A stretch of 64,000 nt of DNA from NCBI GenBank assembly GCA_000091205.1, contig AP006501.2, one strand, 5' to 3'. This document shows, in pieces, positions 4,081 through 60,456 of this stretch (position 1 is the stretch's first letter; the number at the start of each line of letters is the position of its first letter). The position numbers and the translations under genes are program-made. A model generated the notes under the pieces. That model ran no database searches. It had not been told where the DNA came from and saw only the letters and a program-made list of their open reading frames with translations. This DNA comes from Cyanidioschyzon merolae. Its lineage: Eukaryota.

Positions 4081-4181
4081 GCTTCCCTGGATAGCTGGAA
4101 AGTTTCTTGACGGCGATGAAACAGCTTCAGGGCCGCCATCATCTGTAATTGTTGAAAACGTCGTGCACTATATGAAGTCTA

Positions 4182-5105
4182 TCACGTGAGGGATTGCTCG
4201 CAATCATTCGATTCCCGGTCCGGTTCCGGTCTCATGTCTGAGACTTGACACACCAGTTTGGGTTCCAAAATGTCCTTCGCTGATTGGATCAGTGCGAGTT
4301 CCGGTGGGACCCCTGCTTCAACAATCTCTCCCTCATCCAGGGTTCGCCGCAGCACATGGTACACTGTTGAGAACGCGTATTCCACAGCTTGTTGGAGATT
4401 TGGTACCCGAGCGCTCCACGCTAGCAGAAGCGCTGCAGACAGATCGCCGGTGCCGGTGAATGATCCGGGCAACCGTGACGGAAGCTGGAACCACTTGCTT
4501 TGTTTCCGAAGCGCTTCCGAGAGGTACACGCAGGGACGTTGGTGCTCGTCTGCCTCTGCACCGGTGACCACAATGACAGGCACCTGGTAATGCGTATGCA
4601 GCCAATGGCAGGCACGTTCGATGTCGGTCTCATGCGGTACGAGAAGTTGAAGCTCGTACGCGTTCGGAATAATTAAGTGCGCCCTTGGAATTAGAATATC
4701 TCGATAGGCCTCGACCATTTCGGGAGGCACGTAGAGCCGTCCGTTGTCGCCTAGAACCGGATCGCAGAGGTACCAAACCGGCTCCTGACCGGCTCTCTCC
4801 GAGTTAAGAAGGTCAATAAGCTCGCGAACGACCTCCAGGAGCTCGCGAGACCTAATATACCCTGTTAACAGGTGCGTTACGCTTTTTAAAAGCCCATTCG
4901 GTAGGAGGCCGTTCCAAACGATTCGTCGCAGCTGCTCGGCGGTGAGACTCTCCCCGGCTTTGTGGCGATATCCCGTGTGGTTCGCAAAGTGCACCGTGTT
5001 GACAGGATCCACGTCCCAGCCGAGCAATTGTAGAGGAAACGTAGCTGCTTTCTGACCCACATAGCCGTGCACCACGTGCGACTGCACGCTGAGTACCCGG
5101 GGCAT
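4182..5105 (-). CDS. Pyridoxal kinase (ribokinase superfamily). ORF extends in frame to 5318; likely start is Met at 5105.
   Basis: Conserved PdxK N-terminus: RVLSVQSHVVHGYVGQKAATFPLQLLGWDVDPVNTVHFANHTGY. ~308 aa from the internal Met matches family length. Confidence 0.85.
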   Translation of the reverse strand: MPRVLSVQSHVVHGYVGQKAATFPLQLLGWDVDPVNTVHFANHTGYRHKAGESLTAEQLRRIVWNGLLPNGLLKSVTHLLTGYIRSRELLEVVRELIDLLNSERAGQEPVWYLCDPVLGDNGRLYVPPEMVEAYRDILIPRAHLIIPNAYELQLLVPHETDIERACHWLHTHYQVPVIVVTGAEADEHQRPCVYLSEALRKQSKWFQLPSRLPGSFTGTGDLSAALLLAWSARVPNLQQAVEYAFSTVYHVLRRTLDEGEIVEAGVPPELALIQSAKDILEPKLVCQVSDMRPEPDRESNDCEQSLT

Positions 5106-5450
5106 GAAGAGCGTACACCAGGAAGCGCGAGAAGTTGCCACGCGAGCGCCTTGGTGGCCGTGCGCGAACGCAGAAGCAAAGCAGCGTATAGATAGGAGGC
5201 GTGGTGAGTGCTCGCGGCAGGCTATATACCCGGAATAACGTACGAGCAAACTGCCAGATCCGGAGGAAAGTATGGTTGGTGGTGTTGCTTGTTGGAACTT
5301 GGTGGTATGGCGCAGCATGACGGTCGCGGATCACGGTCGCGCAACTGCGTATTCCAGGTTTATGTATCAGCAATCCTACGCTCTAAGAAAACGTTCAGTC
5401 GATGGACTCGAAACAGACGGCTAACTACGACGCCGAATATACTCGCCGGG

Positions 5451-5885
5451 TCGTCGATGGTATTCACTGCATTATCCCCATCGACGGAACGTTGATACAG
5501 CGCTGTACTAGTCTTCTGCACGATGCATATCGGTCGTCGATCATATTCACTGCATTATCCCCATCGACGGAACGTTGATACAGCGCTGGACTAGTCTTCT
5601 GCACGATGCATATCGGTCGTCGATCATATTCACTGCATTATCCCCATCGACGGAACGTTGATACAGCGCTGGACTAGTCTTCTGCACGATGCATATCAGT
5701 CTTCGATGGTATTCACTGCATTATCCCCATCGACGGAACGTTGATACAGCGCTGGACTAGTCTTCTGCACGATGCATATCGGTCGTCGATCATATTCACT
5801 GCATTATCCCCATCGACGGAACGTTGATACAGCGCTGGACTAGTCTTCTGCACGATGCATATCAGTCTTCGATCATATTCACTGC
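5451..5885. repeat. Tandem minisatellite, 83-bp unit, ~5.2 copies, >90% identity between copies.
   Basis: Unit tcgtcgatcatattcactgcattatccccatcgacggaacgttgatacagcgctggactagtcttctgcacgatgcatatcgg. It starts at 5451, 5534, 5617, 5700, 5783 and 5866. It lies between the divergent pyridoxal kinase and aminopeptidase genes. Confidence 0.9.
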
Positions 5886-6071
5886 GATAACACGTTTGCA
5901 GGTCACGGTATCGAGATCCACACTGGTACCGAGCAGATATCTTCTTTTTTTCAGCAAGATTCGTTGGGGTCAGCGCTGCAGCGCCAATGGGTGATTGCTC
6001 GTCTCAAGGTAGTCGGTTTGTGCCTGAATCACGGAACTTGCCGCTTTTTGTTTCACTTTGTTCTCAGTACC

Positions 6072-16298: not shown

Positions 16299-17969
16299 CG
16301 ACGAACAAGTTTTGCGCCCAGTGAGAAACCAAGTGCACGATTTTTGAGAAACGTGTTCACTTCAAACCAACCAGTCTATGCAACGAATGACAGCGGCCTT
16401 GGTGTATGCTGGCAGGCAAGCCGTCTGTGCGCGTTACGCCACGGACACGTTCAGACGCACCGCGAAGGCAATCGACGATGGCGACGCCGCCGCTTGATGT
16501 TGCAGGCACGCCACACATCGCGTCGGTGGGCATCGATCCGCCAATCGAAGCCGCTCGATGCGACGCGCAGCTTCGCGTTGCATCTGTCACGCGGCGCGCA
16601 CCTGCGGATCGCCTGTACACGATGAGGATCGTGCACCATGGAGTCGTAGCGATTTGCAGCCCGAGCGCGTAGAGTCGTTTTGGATGCGGCATGCACCTGG
16701 AGCGAAATCCCTTTAAGTAGCTGGGGAAGCGAGATCAACGGTTCGCTAGGCTGCTCCAATTTCTACTAATCTCTGAGCAGCTTCGTGCAGGAAAGGAGGC
16801 ACTGATGGACGCTGCGTGTATTCTGGGTGCTGAGCGTTCTATGGGCGCCTGCTGCGGCCTTGGAAGCGCCGCAGCTGCCGACGCGGATACCCACCGGGGA
16901 TAGAGCGGGATCGCGGAGTCGTAATCGACGTATTCTCGAAGACCAGCGCATTCGTCGATGACAATCATACGGGTGCGCGGAAATGCAATCGGGCGACGCG
17001 TGCGCTGACGTGCATTGCAGACTTGCCTGCGACCGTAGAGGCCATGGGGAGGCACAATCCAGAGTGTACTGGGAAAAAGCGCCCGTATGGAACTGCGCGT
17101 ATCCAGACAGCAAGCGCGGTGTGCCCTGAGGGATCCGGCTGAGCAGTGCGGGAGTCGCCAGCATCTGCACGCACGATCGCTCAACAGCTTCCGCACACGC
17201 CGCTCCAGAGCAACGTCGCAATCGACCCGATTCGCCCGCCGTCGGTAATCCGCAGCATTGCGATTCACCGTGTGCACGCAAAGCGCGTCGCGATGGACCT
17301 CACAGAGCTCGTACGTCGGGCTCCAGACGGCAGGCTTGATCACCTGATCGGCCAGTATTCAAGCAGTGTAGAAATCTTCCGAGGTATTCCTTTGGTCGCA
17401 TACATGATATGACACACGTAACGAATCGAGAACGCGCTTGCTTCGATGCAGGACAAGGATTACTCGTTTATGAAGAGGTGCGATCCCCAGACGCCATATG
17501 CATGCGTGTCCGCGTCTAGCCGGCAAATGCACGGATCATGCACCCGCGCGGATGCAATCACGCATGAACGCACCTTGATGGTGGTGCTTTAGTGGTGTAG
17601 ACTCGATCGTTGAATTTACGCTGGGATCCGCGTGTGTGCGACTCTTACGCGCATCAAGGCAGGCAAGCAGCTTTGTAAACCGGATTCTCGAAGTTCCACC
17701 ATCAACTCCAGAGGCTTCCGTACAGGGATCGTGATTCGTGCCAATGATTCCCCGGGTTCCGATCCCGCCGCGAGCGTCTGTTGCGGTGCCTCAGGCGGGC
17801 AGATGTAGGTGTCGTCATTCTCGCCACTGTGTATACTATGAGCGAAAGACGAGGTTTATGGTTGAGTGCGTTTCGTACGCTAACGAGCTATGCTGACGAG
17901 CTGACCGCACAGAAAAGAGTCACACGAGCCGCCCACGCGCAGAACTCGCCTTCGAAGAAAATACAGTGC

Positions 17970-19697
17970 CTATGCACAGAGCCGCTGCTCCAGCTTGTCC
18001 ATGGCTAGTCGACGGCCAATGGGCCATCGAGCGACCACTTCGATCTGGTCAATATCGGGCTCACCGGCTGCATCGCCAAGTCGGAGTAATCGTTCAACCC
18101 CTGCCCAGGCTACCATGACGCCGTTATCCGTGCAGTAACGGAGTGGTGGAAAGATAATCGCCTGCTTCAGATCGCATGCAGGCGCTCCTGGATCGGTGCT
18201 CCAGGCCGCCGTGCGCTCCACCTCTTCATCATGTAAACGCCATCCAATCTCAGATGCTAGCTGTTGGAACCGTGCCCGCAACACGGAATTCGCTGCAACG
18301 CCGCCCGAAACCAGGAGCGACTGTACATCGGGCTCGTGCGTTCGACACCACAAAAGCGCCCGCCGCGTCTTTTCAAACAGGTGCTCCAGTGCTACGCGTT
18401 GGAAACTCGCCGCAATGTCGGCAGCTGCCTGTCGATTCACTTGCAGCAGTGTTGCGGTTTCGTCCCTGGATCCGTAGCGCTCCAGTTCGCGCTCAATCGC
18501 TACACGAACCGCAGTCTTGAGGCCAGCGAAAGAAAAATTACAATCCGGACGCTTACGGAGCGGAATCGGGAAATCAAAAGCGTTTGGGTTCCCCTCACGC
18601 GCCAGCCGTTCTAGTGCGGGTCCACCGCCTCCACCAACGTCCAGACCCAACAAGCGTGCGATTTTGTCGAAAGCCTCTCCGACAGAGTCATCCAGCGTAC
18701 CGCCAAGGACTTCAAAATTCCCGAGGTCACGAGCCAGAAGCAACATGCAGTGACCGCCGCTGACTAGCAGAACCAGAAACGGGAACGAAGGCCGGTAGCC
18801 TCCGAAAAGACGTGGCACCAAGCAGTGCGACTCGAGATGATGTGTTGAGATAAATACAGGGCCAGGCGCGCTCGATGCCTCCTTGAGTCGGCCCAGAAGG
18901 CGTTGGGCAGCGCGGAACCCCACTCGAAGGCAGATCTCGAGACCGGGTCCCATGGTCACCGCGACTGCGTCCAAGCCGTTGGCGCTGCGAGCCCACACCT
19001 CGTTTTGTGAGCATGTAAAAGCCTCGCACAATACGCGCTCAATAAGTTCATCGATCACCTGCTCATGGGCTTGACGTGCCAGCCCCGGCACAACGCCCCC
19101 GTAACGAGCATGGATACTGTCCTGCTTCACGACCGCTTCGGATAGGATACATCCTTTGCTGTTCACAACAGCGACCGCTGTATCATCGCAGGAGGTCTCA
19201 ATGCCTAGTACGAGGTGCGGGCGCGCACCGCCGCCCGTGAGTCGCAGCACAGTCAACCGTTCATCGGTGACTGGGGCGGCGTCTGCGGGGAGTACCAGAG
19301 AGAGCCCGCGCTGGGACGGTAAAGGCATTTTTAAAAGCCGTTCTTTCTGTGTGTCCGTGAACCCTAACGGGGCACTCCCGGTAGTGGTCTGTTGTACACG
19401 CAACGCTTGCTCGCTGCGGTCAAACTCGCCATAGTCGGTGCCCTTCGGCTGCCCGACGCGGGATCTATCGTGCCGAAAAGATTCCGCGCCAGATGCCATT
19501 GAAACTAAGGTTCCGAGACTCCTCGATGGCGCGGGCGTACGCCAGTACGTTCCTGTGCTGTGATGAAAAGGTGCAGTCGGACTCGTAACCAATCGAGGAG
19601 AAACTGCTGTGCGCACAAAGCGCGAGTGCCCCCTACACGGCTGTAATAGGGCAAACGCAAACACACGCGACTCTGCCGGTTTCTCGAGAAAAGGCAT
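17970..19697 (-). CDS. Bacterial-type tRNA N6-adenosine threonylcarbamoyltransferase (TsaD/Qri7/OSGEPL1 family, probable mitochondrial t6A enzyme). N-terminal ~150 aa form an extension; alternative starts at 19499 or ~19326.
   Basis: LVLGIETSCDDTAVAVV signature, which is TsaD/Qri7-type rather than Kae1 GIEGSAN. Kae1/TsaD family body, ~420 aa core. The Arg-rich N-terminal extension is compatible with a presequence. Confidence 0.8.
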   Translation of the reverse strand: MPFLEKPAESRVFAFALLQPCRGHSRFVRTAVSPRLVTSPTAPFHHSTGTYWRTPAPSRSLGTLVSMASGAESFRHDRSRVGQPKGTDYGEFDRSEQALRVQQTTTGSAPLGFTDTQKERLLKMPLPSQRGLSLVLPADAAPVTDERLTVLRLTGGGARPHLVLGIETSCDDTAVAVVNSKGCILSEAVVKQDSIHARYGGVVPGLARQAHEQVIDELIERVLCEAFTCSQNEVWARSANGLDAVAVTMGPGLEICLRVGFRAAQRLLGRLKEASSAPGPVFISTHHLESHCLVPRLFGGYRPSFPFLVLLVSGGHCMLLLARDLGNFEVLGGTLDDSVGEAFDKIARLLGLDVGGGGGPALERLAREGNPNAFDFPIPLRKRPDCNFSFAGLKTAVRVAIERELERYGSRDETATLLQVNRQAAADIAASFQRVALEHLFEKTRRALLWCRTHEPDVQSLLVSGGVAANSVLRARFQQLASEIGWRLHDEEVERTAAWSTDPGAPACDLKQAIIFPPLRYCTDNGVMVAWAGVERLLRLGDAAGEPDIDQIEVVARWPIGRRLAMDKLEQRLCA

Positions 19698-46960: not shown

Positions 46961-49900
46961 ATGGCAGCAGTTGGGCAGGCAGCTGCGTCCGAAGCAGCGC
47001 TGAGGAGCCCAACCGCGAACATCCTTTTCAAAGGTGATCTGGAGGCACGTTTGGCGCGAGTTGGCGACGCATGGCTCGATGCAAGCAGGACGTTCGATGC
47101 GCTCTTCGTTTATACGGGAGCGCTCGCAGCTGGAGAGCCTGCCGGTTACCGCAAGTCTTATGCTTTGGTTATGTACATACTTGGTGTGGAAGCGCAGCAG
47201 ACTGCTCTGGTGCTGCAGCACACCGACGCCGCGTCAGTACTGTGGATCGGGACGGCAGATGCCGAGATCTGGGCCGCGCTAGAGACAGCTGCCCCAGCGC
47301 TGGGTCTATCCGCGGGTCACCATGAGGCAGACCGCCATCAAAATGGTGTCGAAGTGAACGACGATCGTAGCGGAGCGTCTTCAACCCCGAAAGCAACCCT
47401 TCTACGGGGCAACTTGGGCTCAGACTGGTTCCTGGTAGCCGCTTGGATAGCAACCAAGCGTGACCTGGAGAAGACGCTTGCCGTGGCGGGGGTTCCTGCG
47501 CGTTCCTCATTGAATTTGGGTGCCCTGGTGAAGGAGCGGAACGTACATCAGGGTGACTTTGCCGCGAAATGCACCGCCTACGTTTTCGGAGACGCGGCAG
47601 GGTCGGACGTTGCCACTCCACCTCCGGTGAATGCAGCGGAATGGATTGGAAACCTGCTCATTGCGAAACTCCCCGATGAAATTCAAAATATCCGGAAAGC
47701 CTCATATCTGTGCGCGAAAGTTTGCCAGGCATACTTTGTGGAACGGATGGAAAGCATTTTGGACGAGGACACACCAGTTTCGCATGATCGCCTAAGCGAG
47801 GAAGTCGAGGCGCGACTGCTCGCACCAGCAACCGTTGGTGTGCAGCTTGTTGCCAGTGAATGTGAAGCCGCATACCCACCGATCATACAGAGTGGACGAG
47901 ATGGTCCCTTCGACCTGCGTCCTAGTGCAATCAGCAATGAACAAAATTTGAGCACGGGCCTGGTGCTCGCCTCGATCGGTGCACGCTATCATCAGTACTG
48001 CGCAAATGTGGTGCGCACTTTTCTCATAGATGTGGAGAAACCCATCCGCAGCATGTACGCGAAGGCGCTGCAAGCGTTGGAAGCGGTGCGACGCGCGTTG
48101 CGCCCGGAGCAGGAGGCATGGGTTGCCTACAACGCAGCCATTCAAGAGCTCGGAGAGGAGCTAGCCGCCGCGCACCTTGCCGGGAAACACGTCGGATTTG
48201 GCATTGGTCTCGAGTTCCGAGACTCAACCTGGCTCTTGAACGAACAGAACCACAAAATTCTTCGTTCCGGAATGACGTTCCAGATTCAGGTCGGCCTGGA
48301 GCGGCTTGGGGAGAACAGTACACTCGCGCTCATGGTAGCAGATACCGTACTCGTTGGTGGTGCGGATCCAGAAGGGGCGGAAGTTTTGACCCAAGCTGCC
48401 TCCAAGAGCCCTGCCAAAGTAACCTATTTCCTCGATATGGACGCCGACGAGGAAGCGGATGACGGCACCGTAGGCAATGCGGGGAAGAATTCTGAAGCGT
48501 TGGCTTCTGAGCAGGTCGCCGGGGAACCCAGTGCTCCGTCGATCGTTACCCGCCGTCGTGCACAACAATCTAGTGCTCCTGATGATGATGATGCAGCTGC
48601 GGAAGCGGAGCGCATTCGACTCCACCAGCAGAAGCTCGCCGAGCAAAAGCTCCGTGAATCGCGTACCCGAATTCTGGGAAAGAGTGCATCCAGTGCAGGG
48701 GACCAATACAGCGCCGAGGGCAAAGGATTTCGTGCGCTGAATGCTTATCGCGCCTACGAGCGAGTTGAAGACTTTCCCGCTGGGCTACGACCGCGCCAAC
48801 TCTTCGTGGATATGGAACGCGAAGTCGTCCTGGCACCAATCACGGGAATTCCCGTTCCTTTTCACATCGCGACGATCAAGAATGCCTCCAAGTCCGATGA
48901 GTCGGGCTTTACGTACCTGCGCATCAACTTCCTTGTGCCTGGCACTAGCGCGTCGACGGCAAGTGCCTCGGGCGCCGGCGGCCTGACGGCCCCCGCAGGT
49001 GTCAGCGGCGCCGCGGCACGACTATCCCTCTTTCCCGATAACCCCGGATTCGTGCTGAAAGAACTCTCCTTCCGCTCCGCAAGTGCCGCCAACCTGAGCG
49101 AGGTCTTCCGCAAGATCAAGGAGCTTCGCAAACGCTTTACCAGCCGGGAAACGGAAGCCCAAGAGAAGGAGACGCTCGTGAAACAGGCTCCTCTGATTCT
49201 TGAGACCGACCCGAGACGCATCCCGCATCTTGTTGACGTGTCGATTCGCCCGTCGTTGGGCGCTGGGGGTCAACGTGCAAACCAGGGTGTCCTCGAAGCG
49301 CATGTCAATGGTCTGCGTTTTCGCTCGCGGCAACAGCGCGCTGTGGACATTCTCTATCGCAACGTGAAGCACGCCTTCTTCCAAGAGGCGCGTAACGAGG
49401 TCATCGTGCTGGTTCATTTCCGTCTGCATACGCCGATCATGGTGGGAAAGCGCAAAACAATTGATATCCAGTTTTACACCGAGGTGATGGATGCGACCGT
49501 CCGCCTCGCGGATACGCGACGGAATCCCTTCGATATCGATGAAATCGAAGAGGAGCAGCGTGAACGGGAGAATCGGCATCGTCTGAACAAACTGTTCTTC
49601 AAGTTTACCAAAGAGGTAGAGGCCAAAGCAAATGAAGAGCTCGAGTTCGATATGCCGTATCGGGAATTGGGCTTTGAGGGTGCTCCTGATAAGATGCAGC
49701 GCTTTTTGATGCCGACGCGCGATTGTCTCGTTGATCTTATCGAGTTTCCACCGGTGATCATTTCGCTGGAGGATATCGAAGTAGCTCACTTTGAACGCGT
49801 GACCTACTCGCTCAAAAACTTTGACCTTGTGTTGGTGATGAAGAATTTCGCACAGGAACCGAGTCGTGGTGAGACTCAATGGATCCGCATCTCGTCAGTT

Positions 49901-50584
49901 CCGAGCACAGAGCTGGACGCGGTGAAAAAGTGGCTTGATTCCGTCAATATCCCCTTCTATCAGGGTCCATCGAATCTGAATTGGAACACGGTGCTGCGCA
50001 CCATTCGAGAAGACCTCGAGGGTTTCTACGAAGAGGGCGGTTGGCGTTTCCTGGACGCCGAAGCGTCGAGTTCTTCCTCTGAAGATGAGGATGAAGAGGA
50101 AGGAGACGACGCTGGTGCCGGCGCAAAAACACGTGCCTCCGCGACCAAGGCTAGCGCTGGCGGGGCCGCTGCGGATCTCTCCGATCAGGATGAAGAATAC
50201 GTTCCTAGCGACGAAGACTTTGAAGCGGAATCTTCCGAAAGCGACTATGACGAAGACGATGATGATGAATCTTTCGAGGCTGACGAGGAAGCAATTGACT
50301 TGGCCGAGGAACTCGGTGATGACGATGCAGGTGAAGCCGAGCTCAGTTCCTCTGACGAAGGCCTCGACTGGGACGAACTCGAACGCCGCACCAAGGAGGA
50401 AGAGCGACAGAAGCGCAAGCGATGGCACGACGACGACGATGACGACGAGGATGATAATGATGGTGATGACGATAACGAGAATGATGGCGATGCGCGACGT
50501 CGACGCCACGGACGCAAGCAGCGTGCCCGGGCGCCCTCCGGACAGACAGCGTTGACGCACGGGCCCAAGCGCGTACTTCGTTAG
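46961..50584 (+). CDS. SPT16: FACT complex subunit SPT16. ORF is open from 46907.
   Basis: N-terminal aminopeptidase-like domain, Spt16 middle and Rtt106-like domains. Colinear conserved blocks such as QLFVDMEREVVLAPITGIPVPFHIATIKNASKSDE...LRINF, PHLVDVSIRPSL....GVLEAHVNGLRF, IDIQFYTEVMD. Asp/Glu/Ser-rich acidic C-terminal tail. 1207 aa. Confidence 0.9.
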   Translation: MAAVGQAAASEAALRSPTANILFKGDLEARLARVGDAWLDASRTFDALFVYTGALAAGEPAGYRKSYALVMYILGVEAQQTALVLQHTDAASVLWIGTADAEIWAALETAAPALGLSAGHHEADRHQNGVEVNDDRSGASSTPKATLLRGNLGSDWFLVAAWIATKRDLEKTLAVAGVPARSSLNLGALVKERNVHQGDFAAKCTAYVFGDAAGSDVATPPPVNAAEWIGNLLIAKLPDEIQNIRKASYLCAKVCQAYFVERMESILDEDTPVSHDRLSEEVEARLLAPATVGVQLVASECEAAYPPIIQSGRDGPFDLRPSAISNEQNLSTGLVLASIGARYHQYCANVVRTFLIDVEKPIRSMYAKALQALEAVRRALRPEQEAWVAYNAAIQELGEELAAAHLAGKHVGFGIGLEFRDSTWLLNEQNHKILRSGMTFQIQVGLERLGENSTLALMVADTVLVGGADPEGAEVLTQAASKSPAKVTYFLDMDADEEADDGTVGNAGKNSEALASEQVAGEPSAPSIVTRRRAQQSSAPDDDDAAAEAERIRLHQQKLAEQKLRESRTRILGKSASSAGDQYSAEGKGFRALNAYRAYERVEDFPAGLRPRQLFVDMEREVVLAPITGIPVPFHIATIKNASKSDESGFTYLRINFLVPGTSASTASASGAGGLTAPAGVSGAAARLSLFPDNPGFVLKELSFRSASAANLSEVFRKIKELRKRFTSRETEAQEKETLVKQAPLILETDPRRIPHLVDVSIRPSLGAGGQRANQGVLEAHVNGLRFRSRQQRAVDILYRNVKHAFFQEARNEVIVLVHFRLHTPIMVGKRKTIDIQFYTEVMDATVRLADTRRNPFDIDEIEEEQRERENRHRLNKLFFKFTKEVEAKANEELEFDMPYRELGFEGAPDKMQRFLMPTRDCLVDLIEFPPVIISLEDIEVAHFERVTYSLKNFDLVLVMKNFAQEPSRGETQWIRISSVPSTELDAVKKWLDSVNIPFYQGPSNLNWNTVLRTIREDLEGFYEEGGWRFLDAEASSSSSEDEDEEEGDDAGAGAKTRASATKASAGGAAADLSDQDEEYVPSDEDFEAESSESDYDEDDDDESFEADEEAIDLAEELGDDDAGEAELSSSDEGLDWDELERRTKEEERQKRKRWHDDDDDDEDDNDGDDDNENDGDARRRRHGRKQRARAPSGQTALTHGPKRVLR

Positions 50585-50585
50585 C

Positions 50586-51575
50586 TCAATCAGAATCGTT
50601 CGCTGGCTCTAACTGTACTCCAAAGCACGTCTTCAACGAGTCAAAGAACATAAAGAATATGCCGGACGATACCGCTTCCCAGGTTGCGCGCGGCATGACG
50701 CCCCGGAAGAGTGCAGGGACACCACCCTCTCCGAGCAGCGCTCTGATCGCCTGCAAGACTGAGGTTGCGGGGCGGCCCGGCTGGGTGCCAGAGACCAGCA
50801 TGCGCGTACGCACCACGTCCAGCGGGGTGGTGATGACCCCAATGAGACCGCCGGCGCTCATACCCAGCAGAAGCAGTTCCCATTCGGCGAGTCTTTCGCG
50901 ACCTTGCACTCGCTGCGTGATCTGTTTGAATTGCTCGAACGTCCCAAACTCAAGGGCGTCGAACGGCAAGTTTCGCAAGAGATTCGACCCGTACCCAGTC
51001 CAGAGCGCCATAAGGCCGCCTTCATGAACCCAAAGGTGTCGCGCTGCTGCGACAATATTCGGCTGCAGGCATGACTGCACGCGCTGTTTGATCAACTCCG
51101 CAGGCGTATCGACGAGGCTGCTAACGATATTTGCCATAGCGGCTGCGGTGGTGGACTCCCAGAAGAGCCTCGGGCCCGCGTCCGAGTTCGCACGCAGACC
51201 CTGGTCATGATAATGAGACGCACCGGGGCGCGTTCGACGTAGCGTTCGACGCACCGACTCGTACGTGATCGCGAATAACGCTGCAGTTGGAAGTGAACCA
51301 ATCACGCCGGACAGGACACCGGCGTAGAGCTGGCGAAAACCGCGACCATCCGCCATACGACGTACGGCATGCTGGAATGCGCGTACTGGACCCAGCCAGT
51401 GCAGGCCCGAGGCAGATCGCCACGCCAGTGTCGAAGCAGCTGCAGCTGTTGCGTGGCGAGAGTGGATCAGCCGGCGGTGTGCCGTTGGCAGCTGCTGCGT
51501 CTGCTTGAGCGTGTCGAGTGGGTACAGGAGAAACTCAACTAGGGCCTCGGCGATAGCGCCAGCGCTCGCCTCCAT
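50586..51575 (-). CDS. Mitochondrial carrier family (SLC25) protein, possibly an S-adenosylmethionine-carrier-like member. ORF is open in frame to 51908.
   Basis: Three Mitochondrial carrier signature repeats (LYPLDTLKQ, VDTPAELIKQRVQ, PLDVVRTRM), six TM helices. ~329 aa from Met at 51575, matching family length. Confidence 0.8.
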   Translation of the reverse strand: MEASAGAIAEALVEFLLYPLDTLKQTQQLPTAHRRLIHSRHATAAAASTLAWRSASGLHWLGPVRAFQHAVRRMADGRGFRQLYAGVLSGVIGSLPTAALFAITYESVRRTLRRTRPGASHYHDQGLRANSDAGPRLFWESTTAAAMANIVSSLVDTPAELIKQRVQSCLQPNIVAAARHLWVHEGGLMALWTGYGSNLLRNLPFDALEFGTFEQFKQITQRVQGRERLAEWELLLLGMSAGGLIGVITTPLDVVRTRMLVSGTQPGRPATSVLQAIRALLGEGGVPALFRGVMPRATWEAVSSGIFFMFFDSLKTCFGVQLEPANDSD

Positions 51576-53034
51576 CAAGAGCCGTCGACCGAGCCCGAGC
51601 GGTGTTTTCTGCGCTGGTGTCGCGGGTGCGTGTGAGCTCGTTCGCGTATGTGCACTTGGACTCGCGCCCGAGTCGGCCGGCCGCTTTCGTCGGTCCGGTG
51701 GTGACGACGGCATCACAAGAGCGCGCTCTAACGACCAGATTGGCGTGTGCGCGCACCAGCGGGTTGACGACGTGGAGCTACGGCGTCGTAGCGGCTGCTG
51801 GCCTATCAAGGTATGCAACCACGGGCCGGGGGCAACGTCCGCGTCGAACGCCCAGCTGCCATTATGGCCGCTTCCCGGCGAGGCGACCTTTTCGCTCTCG
51901 AACAGCATGACAACGACGCAAGCACGACCGCGATAGGGTGCTTAGCTGGAGTTCGCACGAAACGCTCCTGGTTTTAAAAAAGCTCCACACTCGCATTACA
52001 TAATGACGCTAGAATCTGGTGCGTTTTGGTGTTGATCATGCCCCGCTTCCGTATCGTGAACAACATACGCTCGGCAGGGTAGAATGCAGCGTGGCTATGT
52101 TCGCCAGCCGCCGCACGCCAACGATAGCACACGTCCGCGCACGGGCAGTGCGCCTCGCGCAGCCAATCATCCGGTTGTCCGTTTCTACTATAAAGGTACA
52201 TTTCTTGGTAGTTATGACTGGTTACTGAATCGCCACCTCAATCAGCACGCATTCGACTTGTCGGGTCCGGGACGCGTGCGCGCTCCGGTGCAGGCGTGTG
52301 CCGGCGCATTCACCGCCACGTGCCTCCGCTTCGTGTGCATCCTGCGGCGTGCCTGGCGTTGGAGCTGCCTCCAGCCGCTGACACCAGTGCATACACGACC
52401 GAGGCAGAGTGTGTGTAGCGCGTCCGGGTCGCGCTGGCACTCCTTCGCGCACCAGGTGAGCTCGGCACTGCCGCCCGCACGCACCCGAACAACGTATGCA
52501 CGCGCGCTTACCCGGTACGGCCACACAGAGACGATGCGATGCATGTGCACGTAGCCACTAACGTCGCTATCGAGCAGGATGCAGCATGCATGCGCGTGCG
52601 CCGTCAGGCCGTTTCGCGGGAAACACGCATCCCATGGACACGTGTGTGTCACGGATACACGTAGCACGCATATCAACAGATGCATTGCTATCATTGTGCG
52701 TGTTCACGCACATGTGCTCGAATACGATTGGCGTTCTCGCACCTTTAGGCGCGAGTGTGCGCTCACTGACCGTCCGGGGTGTCTACATGGATCAGCATCC
52801 AATCGACACGGGTGGGCGGCGTTTCGCAGAGCGCTGCGTCCAGCGTCTGGGCGCATCATCACAGCATGGGGTGTGCAGCTCAGTGCGCGAGGTGGATGCG
52901 AAACCGCGCGCTGCGGTCGCGCGCTCACCAGGACTCGTAGTCGCACCATGCATGCTGTTTGCCAATGAGCAGCGCCCATGTACCTAACCGGAACGCAACG
53001 AACTGCTGCGATTAGCCGCGCACGGTGATCATCT

Positions 53035-56000
53035 CTACGGGAGGCGGGTGCGACGTGCCTTAAGCATGCGCCGCGGCGCCATGGTACCAGGAGCGTGCGC
53101 ATCGCCAAGGGCTTGCGTTGGTGCGAATCCAGGCGCTCCCAGCAACGGTGTCGCTGGCGGAGGCACGCCATTCGCCGCCGGGTCACTCGGAGCCAGCGAC
53201 GGCCACGGTAAGGACGCTGGCAACGGTGCGGCAGCGCCCGATGCGGGCCACGGTGATTGCAACGACGACACCGCTGGTGCCGAGACAGTCGGCGTCTGCA
53301 TCGGTGCACTGAGCGATGAGGTCGTCCACATTGATGTACCGTTCGTGCCTTGAGATGCCGATCCAAACCAGAAAGGTTCCGAATTGGTACTTGCTGTCGG
53401 TGCAGAGAACAACCAAGCGGGTGGTTTCGGCGGCGCGTTGCTAGCAGAAGCGGCGACCGTGGTATCAGTTGCGCCAGCCGCTGGTGGACCAAAGTGAAAC
53501 GTGCGCGCAGGAGCCGGTATCGCGAATGCTCCCTGTGAAATAGATGCCTTCGGTGCAGGGGCCGCGGTTGCGGGCACCTGTTGCGATGCCCCACTTGTGT
53601 CCTGCGATTGCAGGGGCGTCTTCTGGGGTGATTCCCCAAGCGCGGCACCAGCTGTGTCAACGGTTTGTATGGACTGCGTTTCTGTGGAATTCGGCTTCCG
53701 GGATGCGGTTCCGTCGCTGACGGGCGCTGCCGATGTCTCAGCCGCGGATTTGGTTTCGTACGCCGCCTTTTGCGGCATCGCCATCTCAGAGGCTGATTCC
53801 TGCTGCTCTTGCCCAGTACTGCCAGGCGGAGCGTGCATCCGTGGTACGTCATCGGGCGACGCTGACGCCAGCGTATTCGGCTTCGGGTCTGCTGGTGCGC
53901 CGGAGCACTGCGCGATCTCATCGTGTTCGTGCGGCAGTTCTGTCTGCACAAATCCCGCGAGCGATGTCTTTGCGATTTCCGACGACGACGGCGCAACGTC
54001 CAATGACCCTGATGCTGTTGGAGCAGGCGCTGCCGCATTCGGTGGTGCTATGTGTACGGAGGAGTCTGTAGATTCCTGTCGCGACGCTGATTCGCTCGAC
54101 ACCGGCACCGTCGAAGGCTGCACAGTCGTATCAACAGGCACGTACCCGGTTCTTTGAGTAGAGCCGGCTGTGGACAGTGATGGCGGTCGCCAAGGTTCCG
54201 GAATACGCGGCAACGCGATCTCGAGAGGGCGCATGCGCGGTGGCAGCGTCGGCAATGTCGGTGCGTCGGGACTGGAACCCTTCGACAACGTTGTCTCTGC
54301 AGCGTCGGCATGGAGCTGGGCTTCTGGTGACGCTTGTTGCGCGTGCTCTCCATGCTCTGGTAGCGACACCGTTCGTTGCACTTGGAGTTCATCATCGCCG
54401 AGTTTTGACGGGACTATTCGCCGCATGGCTTCGAGTTGCATGTCCCTGGCACCACCAGCCGCAGCACCAAATACGGTCGCAGATTTTGACCTGGCCTGCT
54501 GCTCAGCATCTCCTGTAGGTGGCAATGAAACAGCACCAGCATCCCGCGTAGTTGGCGCTGTGGTGTCATGCGTACCAGTGGCGGCGAGGTCCACTGCAGC
54601 AGCACTTGCATGCTGATCGGCCTTCAGCGGTGGTGTTCGCAAATGCATGTCTTGTTCGGCAGTGAGAGACGACGAGATGTTCGCGTCATCAGCGGAAACA
54701 TCCATCGAAAGCGTACGGCGCTTATTCCGAGCCGCCACTGTTTGCGCAGCACGGTCCAATGCGACGTCCAGCTCAGTACTATGGTCTATGGTGAAACCGC
54801 GATTGCTAGTCACGTCGGATGCAGCGGTTGCTGCTGCGGGTGTTCGCTTCCCAGGTGTTATGCAAGTGTCGCGCTCCCGCTCCGGCTGATCGCGAATCCT
54901 CTTCAGCGATTCGATGAGTTGATATAGGCGGCTCGTTGGAGCTCCAGCGCCATCACCATCTTTGCGGATGTCTGCTCGGGCTCGCTGACCATCGCGCCCA
55001 TTTTGATGCCTATCGGAACGCGTACCCGTCACGATAAGGTTAGCGTCTGATCGGCGCCGTTTCGCCGCACTCATCCGCAGTGCAGGCGATCCATCGAACG
55101 TCCAGACGGCATCTAAACTGCGGTTCTGCACGCTGTGCGCCTGGGATGGCACTGATCCGCTGCCCAGGGATCCAGACGGTAGCGCGCCAGCGCTCTGCTC
55201 GAACACGCCAATGGGGCTGGTTCGCTTCGCGGATGTCGCATTGCTTGTTCGCGTTCGCCCATGCGGGACGTCTCGCAGCGGAAGTGTCGTGAGCGGTACC
55301 GCAGGCAACTTCACGTGACGGACGTCTGCTCTATTTCGCAACCAGCCATCACTTCTGTCGTCGATAGCGCTCATTCCTGACCGCTCTAATTCGCGTCCAA
55401 GAAGGCTCGTCGATAACCTAGGATCCAGGTGCTCCTGCTGGTAGCTCTCTGGATGCGCGCAAAGCGTACTGTAGTGCTGCCTCTCGAGTGAAGCGTGCAA
55501 CGACGACGATCGAGCTCTGTAGGTGTCCAGCATCGACGACGACAGGCGTTCGGTGCTATGCTGTGTGAAACGTGCCTCTAGTCGCGACGCACCAGCGACG
55601 AAATCCGACTCGGTCGGTGTCCATGGCGACAGGCGGCGGAAATCGGAACCGCTTGGACGTACCGAGTACATGGTGCTGGTCGGTGTCGCGGCAGGGGCAT
55701 CCATAATACGCCGATGCGGCACGATCCCCAATGCAGACGGCCGTATCTTTGGTGCTGGCGGCAGGTCGGCCAAATTTCGGATGAGCGACTGCTCCTGCGC
55801 AGGAGATCCCCCTTTTGATGCCTGAATCGCAACGCCCATCGATCGCGTCTCTGTTCGCTGCCTGAACGTCCGAATGACATCGTAGCTGGTCACGAGCGAT
55901 GCCTGCCGGGTGCTACGCTCTGGTGCTCGCGAATCGTTCGCGGGTTGCGCTCCGTAAACCCGTGTCGTAGGGGATTCGGTGTGGGTCGCGGTGGTGGCTG

Positions 56001-57825
56001 CGGCGCGTTCATGTCGTGAGGTGCTATCCAGGTTCGTCAAGAGCTGGGTCGGGGCTAGACTCTCGTGCGGCTGCGATACAGCCGTCCGCTGCTCTGGCAA
56101 ACGCGCTGTCGGCACTGGCCCTGAAGAACAGGCGATCGCGGGAGCCAGCGAATCCGCAACATCGCGTGCCAGTGCGGTCGAGGTTGCGCGAGATGACGCA
56201 TCCGGAACCTGTTGCGTCGTGCCCGAGAGCACGGAATCCCGGGAATGCTGCGCTTCACTGGCGTACTGGTCACTTTCGGAGCGAGTGGGATCTCCAGTGT
56301 CCATCAGGAGGCTATCTTGCCTCTGGACGACTCCATCCTTCAGAGGCAACGCTTTCGAGTCGTTCGCATATTCGAGCTGCGTCTCTTGCTTGTGCGGCGT
56401 GTGTTTTGAAGCATCCTCGCACTCACGGGCCGAGTCTGCCGAAGCGGATACAGTCGCTGTTTCGCCGACCATGCGCGTACGCTGCACCGTCCCATTAGAC
56501 GCATCTCCATCTGATGATGCACTCGAATAGCGTCCACGATGTTCTCGTGAATCTGTTCTCGAGGACTGCAAGCCATTGGGAGATCCATGTTCAAGACTAG
56601 TCGACGCGGCAGGGGATCTGCTGCTCCCGCGCCAGAGACGCCACCATCTCGACAATGACATCTGGAGTCGTCCGAGCCACCCGTGCGCACCTCGAATCCT
56701 GAGCATAGCTCCAAGCGTCAAGTCTTCCCGTGAATTTGCGCAAAGCTCCTGTGCCTCCATCGAGCTCAGGGCTCGCGCGATGGCCCGGGTTTCGACGGCC
56801 ACTGCCCTGCTGGATTGCTTCCGTACGCCACCGTCGTGCTGTTTCGGTTTCGTCGCTCGCTGTACAGCTCTTGTGGTGCCTTTTTTACCAGGCACACTGT
56901 CCCGATTCATAACATGAGCTGTTCCTGTTCGCCTCTGTACGGGATGCGAGCGTCTGCCTGTCTGGCGTCCATGGACAACACCCGTCCCGGTCGTGGTCTG
57001 GTCATGCGCCTCGCGCACTGCATACAAGTGAGAATGTTCGTCCGATGAGGAGACGCTCCGCTGAGGCGATGCCTCCTCCTGATGATGACGCTCCCGCGGC
57101 AACGACTCCATTCCGGACGGCAAGTGCACGGACGCTGTGGCGCTGGGCACGCTCGAGCGCCCGCGTGGCGCTCGCTGCTGTGAGCCCCTGCCCGGAGACT
57201 CCGACTCGAGCGCACCTTGATTCGATGAACTCTGGACATATGTCGCTATATGATCGCTAGACTGGCGTTGTGCACTTGTGGAAACCGTTGATCGAGGCGT
57301 CTGCTCCGTCGCTCGGCAAGCAAGGGCAGCAGCTCTGCGCACCTGAGACCGCGTGAGTGGGCCATTCTCGTTCGAAAAGCTCGCTGTTGCACGCTTCTGA
57401 CCAGGAGCAAGTTCGTAGCCGGCCTCAACCGTCACACTTAGCCTTCGCACCGGGGTTTCGTGCTCGGGTCGCACGGGCGTGTCGGACGGAGTACCTGCGA
57501 GTCCTCCGTGTGGCTCCTGCACAGCTACTGGCGAACTCTCCGCTGACTGGTCTCTCCTTGAAAGGGTAGTGTCGCTACGCTCCCCAGCTGACTTTCTTCG
57601 AGCGGCTGATGTCTTGCGACTAGACTTCGTCTTCAAAGGCACGTCCGTCTCTACGGAGTGAGACGGCGTCCGCGTACTCGTCGACCTACTGGAACGCCGT
57701 CGGGGGGTCCGTCGTCGCGGGCTTGTCCTCCAACGGGCTTCGATGCGGGATCCTTCCGGCAAGTCATAGTTGCCGTGTCGCGTGCTTACCATACCAGCTG
57801 TCAGTGGACGCCTTGAGCGCACCAA
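53035..57825 (-). CDS. Hypothetical very large (1596 aa) intrinsically disordered Ser/Thr/Pro/Ala/Arg-rich protein. The N-terminus is RS-dipeptide-rich. The C-terminus is Pro/Ala-rich with sparse FG motifs.
   Basis: 4.8-kb uninterrupted ORF. Such length is very unlikely by chance even at this GC content. No globular domain recognised. A second frame (52704..54038) is also open over the 3-prime part because of compositional bias. Confidence 0.5.
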   Translation of the reverse strand: MVRSRRPLTAGMVSTRHGNYDLPEGSRIEARWRTSPRRRTPRRRSSRSTSTRTPSHSVETDVPLKTKSSRKTSAARRKSAGERSDTTLSRRDQSAESSPVAVQEPHGGLAGTPSDTPVRPEHETPVRRLSVTVEAGYELAPGQKRATASFSNENGPLTRSQVRRAAALACRATEQTPRSTVSTSAQRQSSDHIATYVQSSSNQGALESESPGRGSQQRAPRGRSSVPSATASVHLPSGMESLPRERHHQEEASPQRSVSSSDEHSHLYAVREAHDQTTTGTGVVHGRQTGRRSHPVQRRTGTAHVMNRDSVPGKKGTTRAVQRATKPKQHDGGVRKQSSRAVAVETRAIARALSSMEAQELCANSREDLTLGAMLRIRGAHGWLGRLQMSLSRWWRLWRGSSRSPAASTSLEHGSPNGLQSSRTDSREHRGRYSSASSDGDASNGTVQRTRMVGETATVSASADSARECEDASKHTPHKQETQLEYANDSKALPLKDGVVQRQDSLLMDTGDPTRSESDQYASEAQHSRDSVLSGTTQQVPDASSRATSTALARDVADSLAPAIACSSGPVPTARLPEQRTAVSQPHESLAPTQLLTNLDSTSRHERAAATTATHTESPTTRVYGAQPANDSRAPERSTRQASLVTSYDVIRTFRQRTETRSMGVAIQASKGGSPAQEQSLIRNLADLPPAPKIRPSALGIVPHRRIMDAPAATPTSTMYSVRPSGSDFRRLSPWTPTESDFVAGASRLEARFTQHSTERLSSSMLDTYRARSSSLHASLERQHYSTLCAHPESYQQEHLDPRLSTSLLGRELERSGMSAIDDRSDGWLRNRADVRHVKLPAVPLTTLPLRDVPHGRTRTSNATSAKRTSPIGVFEQSAGALPSGSLGSGSVPSQAHSVQNRSLDAVWTFDGSPALRMSAAKRRRSDANLIVTGTRSDRHQNGRDGQRARADIRKDGDGAGAPTSRLYQLIESLKRIRDQPERERDTCITPGKRTPAAATAASDVTSNRGFTIDHSTELDVALDRAAQTVAARNKRRTLSMDVSADDANISSSLTAEQDMHLRTPPLKADQHASAAAVDLAATGTHDTTAPTTRDAGAVSLPPTGDAEQQARSKSATVFGAAAGGARDMQLEAMRRIVPSKLGDDELQVQRTVSLPEHGEHAQQASPEAQLHADAAETTLSKGSSPDAPTLPTLPPRMRPLEIALPRIPEPWRPPSLSTAGSTQRTGYVPVDTTVQPSTVPVSSESASRQESTDSSVHIAPPNAAAPAPTASGSLDVAPSSSEIAKTSLAGFVQTELPHEHDEIAQCSGAPADPKPNTLASASPDDVPRMHAPPGSTGQEQQESASEMAMPQKAAYETKSAAETSAAPVSDGTASRKPNSTETQSIQTVDTAGAALGESPQKTPLQSQDTSGASQQVPATAAPAPKASISQGAFAIPAPARTFHFGPPAAGATDTTVAASASNAPPKPPAWLFSAPTASTNSEPFWFGSASQGTNGTSMWTTSSLSAPMQTPTVSAPAVSSLQSPWPASGAAAPLPASLPWPSLAPSDPAANGVPPPATPLLGAPGFAPTQALGDAHAPGTMAPRRMLKARRTRLP

Positions 57826-60456
57826 GGGCTTTCAAGGCGTACGCAATGGTCGAAAACGCTTCTACGAGGTTCGTGCTGATCGCGCCAAGCCTCTGAGATC
57901 CGCTTGGTCCAGACCCGTGCTGGATCCTAGTCGGACACTGAGCTGCTTGATCTGCGCTTGCCTAGAAACTTTTTCACGAGTTTTTATACATGTCCAGCGT
58001 TAACATTCTAAATGCAGTTGTAGGGGCCCAGGGATTCATAAACACTTTTGCGATTGCCCGTTCATCTTTTCGGAATGGCTCACTCGACGCCGTCTGCCCG
58101 GTGGAATTCGTTGCGTCACCGATATCAAGACCATTCAAGACGTCCTCGAACAAGGTTTCTTGATGTAACCGATATCGTTTTCCAACGCATACGTAGAAGC
58201 GTCAAATTCGTTTCTGTCAAGCTAGCCTGTTGACGTCGTGCGTTCTTCTAGTTTTCCACGTTTCTGTTTCGAGGCAACTCGTGGGCGCAGCTGTTCGCGC
58301 TCCTGAATTGACGAGAAAAAGACTTGACGTCGACCATTGATGAATTGTTCACGAGTTCACGCAGAAATTTTTCCCAAAATCTTCACGTCGAATAATCAAT
58401 TCCTTTCGAAAGAAAACCCCTTATCTTATCACGGCCATCGATGCAACCGCATTCCACAAAAGCACGATGCTGCTCACCTGGGATCGTACACCAGACGATC
58501 ATACCGCTTCGGATTGCATGGTAAATGGCCGCGGATTCGGACTCGAGTCATTGCAGTGATCGTCCGGATTGGACAGATGTCAATGCTTTGCACGAGGGAA
58601 GCGTAGATGGATCGTAATTTATCGATACGCTCCGTCTTCTCAATTCACCACTCTGTGCTTGTCTCATCACGAGTGATATAGCGGCGCTCAAATCTTCCTC
58701 TGTTCTGGAGAAAGGCAGATGACATGGGACTCGTTATCTTTTACATTCGAACGAATTCTCCACGGTTCAACCCGGTCGAGTAGTTCGGGGCCTTGAAAAA
58801 CAGCTCCCGAGAAGCAAATGTCGGATTTGGATATCTTGGATCTGCCTCGACACGAACTGGTACTCGAGACTTGTGGCGCCGCAGTGGCGGCCATCTGACT
58901 CGCAGGGGCTACTTGCGCAAAAATTGTTTCCCTATTCGGATAGGGGATTCTTGCAGGGGCCGTAAGAAACGGGAAGACCACACAGTCAAGAATAAATATG
59001 CTTTGCCTGTTGCTCATCGGAGGAACACGCCCGAAGCGCGCCAGGTATGGCAGAGAGACCATCATGCAAGTGCAAACCGATATCCTGGCGCGTTTCCAGT
59101 GTAGTTGCGTGCCGCTCCCGGAGAACCTCGCTATTCTCGGATGGAACGCCCTCCTGGAAGAAGGTCATCGCTTGGACATCGTCTCGGATGAGAAGCTCTG
59201 TTTAACGCTGTTGCACGACGCATCGATTGTAGAGAGAAACCCGAGAATACACATACACTTGCCGGAACGCAAAGCCCGCATCCCAAAAATACGCACTGCT
59301 CTGTAGCAAGCTGAACAACGAGGTTACTTCACGCGTAACCTCCTGCTCTTTCTGTGTATCGTTGAGCTTTGGAACCTGTATGCGATCATTCAATCTCTGC
59401 TGTTTGCTCTTTTTCCGAATACAAGAGCATCTGTGGCGCGCGTTGTCGCCAGATAAGGAATACGCAGCGGAAAGAGACCCCAGTCTGGCGAACAAGTACC
59501 GCAATTTGGATCCGTCTACGCTCCATTCATGCAAAGTTCTGAGGGAATCTCCAATGAAAACGATCGCCGTGGTGACTCAAGTCCCAGCCCAAAGCCGTTT
59601 CTAATGCAAACAACGACTACGGGAGCCAATGGGAACGTATCCCGTGCGAGGCAACACGCTGCTGTCGAATGCTCTTTCGCCGATGCCCACAAAGAGAGGC
59701 GGATGTGACTTGCGAACGAAGTCGATTCTTTGGTGTAACAAGTTTGGTGCAATTTTGGCATGAACTCGTGAGGAACTCGGCAATGGTCGGCACTGAGCTT
59801 CTTTCGCTCGTCAGAATGCCGGCCGGAATTGCTGCACCTGCCACTTGCCCCGAGACGAAAACAACGCATCTAGGAAGCATGCGTGATTGAAGCCTGCCTT
59901 CCGCAAGAAAACGAATCGAATGCCAATGCATACGCATTTGCGAATGATATCGCTTATGGTACGAACCGTTCTTCGAGCGCGTCACGCATCATGTTGATTC
60001 CAGTGAGGTACCGAATTCAAGTGTCATAGATTCAACGATGCCGTTTCGCAAAAACAACCGAGAACCTTTATACTACGTCTGCACCCGTAACCTCGTATTG
60101 TTGCCCTGTGCTTGTCGAGACTGGACGTCTGAAAAATGATCCGAAAATGAGTCATACGGCAGGGAGCGTATGAGCTGTTCCGTGGACCATTCGATTCGGA
60201 GAGCGCATTTACGCGGTGGATGCGGCAGCCGTGAGTCTTTGCCTTTTAGAACAATAGGAGCACAAGCGGACATGAGCCTGGGCGCAACGCCCCGAGCCGC
60301 CGCCTGCGGGATCCGCGGCGGCGGGAACGTCCGCTTTCGGAAAGCGCGGGAACACGGCGACCTCGAACGACGAAGCGGCTAGCGCGCACAGCCAGCACAC
60401 GACAAGCCGCACTGCATTGTTCCGCAAGTGCACACACTCCTACGACGTTCGGAAAT

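Follow-up and report, generated by a model that had tools for sequence, protein, structure and literature searches.

The window analysed here is a stretch of 64,000 nucleotides of contig AP006501.2 from Cyanidioschyzon merolae (assembly GCA_000091205.1), and the subject is a large open reading frame (ORF) on its minus strand at 53035..57825. As the initial annotation of the window had it, this ORF is the longest present; the second-longest encodes 1225 amino acids (aa). Neighbouring ORFs encode SPT16, a mitochondrial-carrier family protein, FtsZ, an RPE65-type oxygenase, eIF3h, RibD, Hsp70, and an M1 peptidase. The large gene is flanked by a mitochondrial-type FtsZ gene on one side and by the carrier gene, for an S-adenosylmethionine carrier, on the other. 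An exact look-up identifies its product as the C. merolae 10D protein BAM82939.1 (XP_005538975.1; UniProt M1VC04), which is annotated as "hypothetical protein, conserved" and encoded on a 1,282,939-bp chromosome. The ORF is already deposited as a single coding sequence (CDS) with its function unassigned, and a literature search for the accession numbers of the protein gave no match. We are almost certain that the gene is real and that its product is disordered, with short motifs that are conserved. Its layout recalls that of nuclear-pore basket proteins.

The span of 1596 codons given in the initial annotation is real, with an in-frame TTG as its first codon. Starting instead at the first ATG, at 57792, gives 1585 aa, the same length as the deposited protein. 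Since the motif MV[STI]TR[HQ]G.Y, common to four taxa, also begins at that methionine, the ATG at 57792 is, judged from sequence, the biological start.

53035..57792, minus strand: complete CDS, 1585 aa, ATG at 57792, stop codon at 53035-53037

Each of the other five frames contains 29-47 stops across this stretch, so that the probability of a stop-free frame, estimated from those counts, is about e^-37. Codon-usage log-odds, trained on neighbouring genes, are weakly positive for frame 0, which scores highest of the six frames in 10/10 windows. The 90% cluster of M1VC04 contains 33 strain variants, every one 1585 aa long and 98-99% identical. Neither an indel nor a nonsense change is found among these 33 proteins or in five strain DNA sequences. 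The whole C. merolae genome has only 27 introns (PMC2646357). The large ORF is an uninterrupted, intron-free protein-coding gene of C. merolae.

Two overlapping ORFs reported earlier in its 3-prime third, 52704..54038 (minus) and 53501..54157 (plus), do exist, without being conserved genes: neither has a positional counterpart at the Cyanidiococcus locus. We read these extra open frames as by-products of stop-poor composition. Together with a third, 49022-49879 (minus), they span 218-444 aa and run antisense or out of frame to SPT16 or the large ORF. All three are typical of stop-poor coding DNA of ~60% GC and should not be called genes.

The 1585-aa protein is rich in Ser (13.4%), Ala (13.2%), Thr (9.3%), Arg (9.3%), and Pro (8.6%), with little hydrophobic content anywhere along the chain. 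The peptides singled out in the initial annotation, TPRRRSSRSTSTRTPS, FHFGPPAAG, and WFGSASQG, are all present in the product. Internal repeats, considered there as well, amount to two tiny, low-scoring tandem arrays, so the compositional bias is not repeat-derived. Pfam finds no domain at E<=0.01. AlphaFold models were made from the single sequence in two parts. In aa 1-800 the mean pLDDT is 39.7, with 673/800 residues below 50, and in aa 801-1585 it is 37.5, with 719/785 below 50; overall, ~85-90% of residues fall under that value. There is no transmembrane segment (maximum 19-residue Kyte-Doolittle mean, 0.86). The protein is almost completely disordered, non-membrane, and non-secreted. The earlier description of a disordered, lineage-restricted protein without a domain is thus borne out by AlphaFold, by Pfam, and by orthologues that were found in Cyanidiaceae only.

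Those orthologues were located through the adjacent carrier. Carrier orthologues were identified in Cyanidiococcus yangmingshanensis (67% identity), Cyanidium caldarium (53%), a JGI metagenome lineage (78%), and Galdieria (39%), and ORFs were then sought at the matching position. The order RPE65-FtsZ-large ORF-carrier-SPT16 is kept in Cyanidiococcus (locus L002), Cyanidium (L003), and the metagenome lineage (L005). The three orthologous ORFs are as follows, with the probability of no stop given for L002, L005, and L003 in turn.

L002, 4432..9165: Cyanidiococcus orthologue, 1577 aa, P(no stop) e^-42
L005, 4020..8720: metagenome-lineage orthologue, 1566 aa, P(no stop) e^-46
L003, ATG at 3818 to 7735: Cyanidium orthologue, 1305 aa, P(no stop) e^-16

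All four ORFs are colinear throughout, with the start motif conserved at one end and the C-terminal tail, right before the stop, at the other. Length is kept among the three closer taxa (1585, 1577, and 1566 aa) despite a three-way identity of only 14%. BLASTP between the C. merolae and Cyanidiococcus proteins matches the two ends only, aa 1-189 (41% identity, E 5e-23) and aa 1398-1585 (44% identity, E 1e-24), and BLASTP of the C. merolae protein against the Cyanidium orthologue gives nothing significant. A metagenome scan returned four C. merolae-like contigs only and no new distant lineage. The giant disordered proteins of Cyanidiaceae form one family whose members had previously not been linked together, and by the sequences at hand this family is restricted to Cyanidiaceae. 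Synteny was the only route that recovered the orthologues.

The comparison also bears on a public gene model. The deposited Cyanidiococcus model (JANCYV010000006.1) begins at 5971 and encodes 1064 aa. The frame is open from 4432, giving 1577 aa, and the longer ORF starts with MVTTRQGNY, the same conserved motif as in C. merolae. Probably, then, 513 aa are missing from the N-terminus of the public model.

The 14% three-way identity of the closer taxa is gathered mainly in 11 islands that pass the identity threshold and three more seen in alignments. The short islands are colinear in all four orthologues. Along the chain they and the other conserved features lie as follows.

57682..57792, minus strand: N-terminal island, aa 1-37, MV[STI]TR[HQ]G.Y..PEG..I.ARWR.SPR
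57277..57369, minus strand: island, aa 142-172, TRSQ[AV]R[RK]AA..A......QTPRSTVST, AlphaFold helix 148-163
56617..56709, minus strand: predicted Trp/Arg-rich amphipathic helix, aa 362-392, GWLGRLQMSLSRWWRLWRG, kept in four taxa
55846..55908, minus strand: island, aa 629-649, [YHF]DVIRTFRQR, in Cyanidium TDVLKTLLQR
55267..55323, minus strand: island, aa 824-842, KLP.VP..T..LP
55045..55080, minus strand: KRRR site resembling a monopartite nuclear localization signal (NLS), aa 905-916, three taxa
54889..54945, minus strand: island, aa 950-968, SRL..LI.SLK, predicted short helix 956-968
54715..54786, minus strand: island, aa 1003-1026, ELDAALDRAA..VA.R.KR, predicted helix 1005-1026
54178..54225, minus strand: proline-rich island, aa 1190-1205, L.V.LPRIPEPWRPPS
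53080..53547, minus strand: low-charge aromatic FG-like domain, aa 1416-1571, FHFG, W.F, PFWFG, SLPWPS
53038..53079, minus strand: basic C-terminal tail, aa 1572-1585, APRRMLKARRTRLP, stop directly after

The N-terminal motif is followed by a basic, S/T-P-rich segment that resembles an NLS and sites for cyclin-dependent kinases; the C. merolae protein as a whole has 9 [ST]P.[KR] and 31 [ST]P sites. A Tudor or chromo-barrel start was considered for the N-terminal 'EG.RI.ARW' and rejected, since the match is too short, gives way to disorder, and is missing from the Cyanidium protein. The Cyanidium orthologue has a poly-Ala insertion (aa 17-26) directly after the N-terminal motif that the other orthologues lack.

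Predicted helices fall mostly on the conserved islands (148-163, 335-388, 956-968, and 1005-1026). Off the islands AlphaFold gives a weak helix at 728-787 and a short one at 934-940. Helix 335-388, with pLDDT 61-73 the best-predicted helix of the N-terminal half, includes the Trp/Arg segment, which reads GWLGRLQMSLSRWWRLWRG in C. merolae and LLWRLRRSVQRVAEYLWRR in Cyanidium. Its hydrophobic moment (muH) is 0.42-0.76 across the orthologues, and among 18-aa windows it ranks 2nd, 1st, 6th, and 1st in the four proteins. Residues 362-392 are a candidate membrane- or partner-binding helix, on sequence and model grounds. A SAP/HeH-like stretch, FRELQAEAKRAGVSGGGTTSALRQRLGHL, was spotted by eye at aa ~425-460 of the Cyanidium orthologue. 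Pfam lends it no support, the other orthologues do not contain it, and it was set aside.

The C-terminal domain differs sharply in composition from the rest. In C. merolae, charged residues make up 3.8% of aa 1416-1571 versus 23.3% of the body, and aromatics 7.7% versus 2.5%. The same shift occurs over the ~155 residues before the tail in all four taxa, from 23-26% to 4-8% charged and from 2.3-3.2% to 6.4-8.3% aromatic, with S, T, P, A, G, N, and Q together at 69-76% of the domain. All F.F motifs of the protein lie within it. The C. merolae motifs are FHFG, WLF, and FWFG (two F.F and one W.F), the first of them conserved as FHF[GT] across the orthologues, while Cyanidium has six F.F, three of them FxFG, a number reached in 0/5000 shuffles (p<0.0002). 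The tail RR[MF]L[KR]ARR[ST]R follows in each of the four taxa, right before the stop. In composition, FG-nucleoporin domains are marked by FxF(G) motifs set in uncharged S/T/P/A/G spacers. The spacer composition fits this signature in four taxa, with a low number of motifs.

This combination of a disordered chain, a motif array, and a C-terminal FxF(G) region with a basic tail is the layout that has been described for basket nucleoporins. Because it matches that of Nup153, Nup60, and Nup1, we propose that the protein may act as an FG-poor, basket-type scaffold of the nuclear pore in Cyanidiaceae. The likeness is one of architecture, and we hold this reading tentatively, at perhaps a little less than an even chance. 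The narrower claim that the protein is a previously unrecognised nuclear-basket organiser of Cyanidiaceae, of the Nup153/Nup60 type and diverged past sequence detection, we consider rather unlikely. A match in layout is a resemblance of architecture and not proof of homology. The scaffold or nucleoporin option raised in the initial annotation is supported as the one that best accounts for the conserved C-terminal FxF(G) domain.

In the proposed scheme, the protein would be a flexible 'cable' bearing an array of short binding motifs. The basic N-terminal region and the KRRR sites could direct nuclear import, and the Trp/Arg amphipathic helix could dock the chain to a membrane or a partner. Several further short helices may serve as partner-binding motifs. 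The uncharged aromatic FxF(G) domain, ending in a basic NLS-like tail, might then bind karyopherins.

Prior work leaves room for such a protein. Profile screens did not find Nup153/Nup1, Nup60, TPR, or Pom121 in C. merolae (PMC2674657, Table 1). The same survey reports one C. merolae candidate FG nucleoporin without recognisable FG repeats, gives CMH178C as a weak Nup50 candidate, and identifies no TPR/Mlp (PMC2674657). In red algae generally, basket nucleoporins have been called 'conspicuously absent' (PMC6411479). Given the missing class and the matching architecture, the large gene is a reasonable candidate.

The likeness to Nup60, Nup1, and Nup153 comprises near-total disorder, an amphipathic helix (a predicted, internal one in C. 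merolae), a motif array with fast-evolving linkers, NLS-like sites, and a C-terminal FxF(G) region. Yeast Nup60 has been likened to a 'suspension cable': a disordered chain that combines an amphipathic helix, an array of motifs, and an FG region (PMC8836807). Nup153 is taken to be the likely orthologue of Nup1/Nup60 even though little of the sequence is conserved (PMC11392808); the family itself is very poorly conserved in sequence. The FG domain of human NUP153 (896-1475) terminates in an 11-residue basic RRR tail (PMC10068764), so that its FxF(G) region ends in a short basic tail, as does that of the C. merolae protein. Within Archaeplastida, the plant protein Nup136/Nup1 (At3g10650) is comparable by description: it is an FG nucleoporin, long and disordered, that is confined to its lineage and poorly conserved. 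It is listed as a Nup153/Nup1 candidate, among plant candidates called 'poorly conserved' (PMC2674657). Searches with the C. merolae protein did not recover Nup136, and the published Nup136-based profile detected no C. merolae protein (PMC2674657).

Several results weigh against a role in the basket. Homology of the Nup153 type was not found in sequence by Pfam, by zinc fingers, or by profile match: unlike the Nup153 class, the C. merolae protein has no zinc fingers and no Pfam Nup153-type match at E<=10. At that threshold Pfam gives nothing in the four orthologues except a chance-level PDE8 match (E 0.82) in one, and sequence searches of the PDB, with a profile and with single sequences, give 0 matches at E<=10. 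With aa 330-1529 as the query, an exhaustive HMMER search of 1.84e9 cluster representatives brought up nothing but the query itself, and in a word-index search the full protein matched its own 90% cluster alone. The HMMER query omitted the two best-conserved ends, and the search also missed the Cyanidiococcus orthologue. For this compositionally biased family, negative searches are weak evidence of absence. A profile of concatenated islands missed even the C. merolae protein at E<=10 and is not counted as evidence.

The architecture itself also fits imperfectly. NUP153 has at least 23 FG repeats in its C-terminal domain (PMC10068764), compared with only 3 FxF-type motifs (2 FxFG) in C. merolae, far below typical FG nucleoporins. 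Outside Cyanidium, the enrichment of F.F is marginal in the other three taxa (p 0.014, 0.057, and 0.115). The amphipathic helix, at aa 371-389, sits ~370 residues into the chain, whereas it is N-terminal in Nup60, Nup1, and Nup153, and the Trp/Arg segment is not uniquely the most amphipathic one. The tail resembles those of Nup153 and Nup1 in arrangement only; a possible likeness at residue level to the tails of Nup153, Nup1, Pom121, and ELYS serves only as a lead. The C. merolae protein is three times the length of Nup60. Nucleoporins of the Nup153/Nup1/Nup60 class bind TPR/Mlp, Nup50/Nup2, and the Y-complex. Of such partners, TPR/Mlp is not identified in C. merolae (PMC2674657). At the Galdieria carrier locus (L004) gene order is not kept and there is no corresponding large ORF.

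Variation among strains is a further point of this kind. The ratio of nonsynonymous to synonymous polymorphism (pN/pS) was calculated from five C. merolae-type DNA sequences (the window, L001, L006, L007, and L008).

Large ORF: 13 synonymous, 40 nonsynonymous, pN/pS 1.10
Carrier: 8 synonymous, 5 nonsynonymous, pN/pS 0.22
SPT16 (part): 6 synonymous, 6 nonsynonymous, pN/pS 0.31
FtsZ: 2 synonymous, 2 nonsynonymous, pN/pS 0.35
RPE65 (partial CDS): pN/pS 0.63, from 3 substitutions only

The value for the large ORF, ~1.1, contrasts with 0.22-0.35 in three neighbours. Polymorphisms in deeply conserved columns number 5 against 7.6 expected, a depletion that is not significant. Most of the chain drifts nearly neutrally, and its bulk behaves as a nearly neutral spacer. 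Segregating sites make up 1.1% of the large ORF versus 1.6-2.0% of the flanking intergenic DNA. Selection is seen only over the long term, on frame, length, and islands.

The same array of motifs and the same disorder would suit a nuclear hub unrelated to the pore, associated with chromatin or regulation, for example a cell-cycle or transcription scaffold. This alternative is quite possible, though some way under an even chance. The basic tail and the N-terminal R/S/T-P region would then be NLS, DNA- or nucleosome-binding, and phosphorylation sites, for which the basic NLS-like sites and the 9 [ST]P.[KR] and 31 [ST]P sites speak, and the aromatic region at the C-terminus would act as a generic 'sticky' domain that forms condensates. 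The lack of nucleoporin homology and the mere three FxF-type motifs in C. merolae favour it too. Near-neutral linkers (pN/pS ~1.1, 14% identity), kept length, and islands on short predicted helices are likewise features shared with generic disordered hubs. The divergent intergenic region shared with the mitochondrial FtsZ gene, whose family is cell-cycle-induced (PMC2646357), would fit a cell-cycle function, although co-regulation is speculative. What a hub leaves unexplained is the FxF/FxFG specificity within a nearly charge-free S/T/P/A/G spacer directly before the basic tail, an arrangement kept in four taxa and expanded to six FxF in Cyanidium. The uncharged FxF(G) domain with its terminal basic tail sets the protein apart from generic hubs and points to karyopherin or pore biology. 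A cytoplasmic disordered adaptor, in vesicle traffic or organelle division, would recruit folded partners through aromatic and proline motifs as endocytic adaptors do. The protein is large and disordered, has short motifs of this sort (LPRIPEPWRPPS, SLPWPS, and PFWFG), and is encoded beside an organelle-division gene. Yet DPF/DPW, NPF, and FxDxF require acidic contexts and the C-terminal domain is nearly without acidic residues, several strong basic NLS-like sites are conserved, and in eukaryotes the neighbours of a gene say little about its function; we regard this explanation as improbable.

Two further readings go back to the initial annotation. A splicing or RNA-processing factor of the SR type, or a secreted glycoprotein resembling mucins, would account for an N-terminus rich in Arg, Ser, Thr, and Pro and for the S/T/P/A-rich composition of the whole, but both are very unlikely. 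RS/SR dipeptides occur at chance frequency (37 observed, 39.4 +/- 5.6 in shuffled sequences), the longest alternating run is 3 residues, and neither an RRM nor another RNA-binding domain is present, in a genome with just 27 introns (PMC2646357). The mucin comparison fails on a polar, basic N-terminus that offers no signal peptide or other hydrophobic stretch, on the absence of a transmembrane segment (the maximum Kyte-Doolittle mean being the 0.86 given above), and on the lack of tandem repeats. That the ORF is no single gene, being instead a chance frame in stop-poor, GC-rich DNA, an antisense artefact, or a set of mis-joined genes or exons, is extremely unlikely. The weakly positive codon-usage score, the pN/pS of ~1.1, and the long ORFs in other frames speak for a spurious frame. 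Against this, the probability of no stop is ~ e^-37 and independently tiny in three orthologues, frame 0 scores best in every one of the 10 windows, and the alternative-frame ORFs are not positionally conserved. The start motif, the stop-adjacent tail, and the length (1585/1577/1566 aa) are all conserved, with four taxa colinear from one end to the other, and the 33 strain variants, each of exactly 1585 aa, show no indel or nonsense change. Mis-joining of an intron-containing gene, as had been suggested, is on these grounds ruled out as far as sequence can tell.

If the basket reading is true, red algae would have their first identified basket nucleoporin, and a pore basket tether could consist of about a dozen short motifs strung along a near-neutral spacer of 1,300-1,600 residues. 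Homology screens have repeatedly missed basket nucleoporins (Nup153/Nup1/Nup60 and TPR) in red algae, so a basket may be absent from these minimal cells or may have a sequence too divergent to recognise. For C. merolae, a minimal eukaryote amenable to genetics, the large gene offers a concrete candidate with defined motifs: the amphipathic helix, FxF(G), and the basic tail. If the nuclear-pore idea is wrong, what remains is a disordered, lineage-specific protein of an ordinary kind. Whatever the function, the locus provides a clean case in which frame, length, and about a dozen motifs are conserved while ~85% of residues drift almost neutrally, and in which synteny finds orthologues where exhaustive sequence search fails. 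Correction of the truncated Cyanidiococcus gene model is a by-product.

Several observations concern the surroundings of the gene. Rfam and tRNA scans of the window gave no match. The intergenic region at 57826-60456, divergent between the large ORF and FtsZ, is 2.6 kb long, unusual for C. merolae. GC falls to its minimum for the window here (~0.50), and polymorphism among strains is at its highest (2.0% segregating sites). Rfam and tRNA scans find nothing in this region, and blastn shows no similarity to the matching spacers of other genera. In Galdieria sulphuraria (BPMW01000028.1, L004), eIF3h and RibD still lie beside the carrier and FtsZ, SPT16, and the large ORF do not; a gene for the nucleoporin-associated protein GLE1 is found nearby, at 17030-18953. 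The gene targeted at this locus does not translate to the query protein, in keeping with the presence of introns. The Cyanidium locus has an extra gene of 545 aa (L003, 7960-9597) between the large ORF and the carrier that the other three loci lack, with a borderline Pfam match to Glycos_transf_2 (E 6.6e-5, exactly at the gathering score). On the carrier side, the SPT16 (plus) and carrier (minus) genes converge at 50584-50588 of the window. Their stop codons are separated by 1 nt in C. merolae and Cyanidiococcus (stop positions 11308/11310 in L002), 2 nt in the metagenome lineage (11017/11020 in L005), and 17 nt in Cyanidium (11419/11437 in L003). With stops that nearly touch, the 3-prime untranslated regions and terminators of the two genes must overlap, and this arrangement is conserved across genera.

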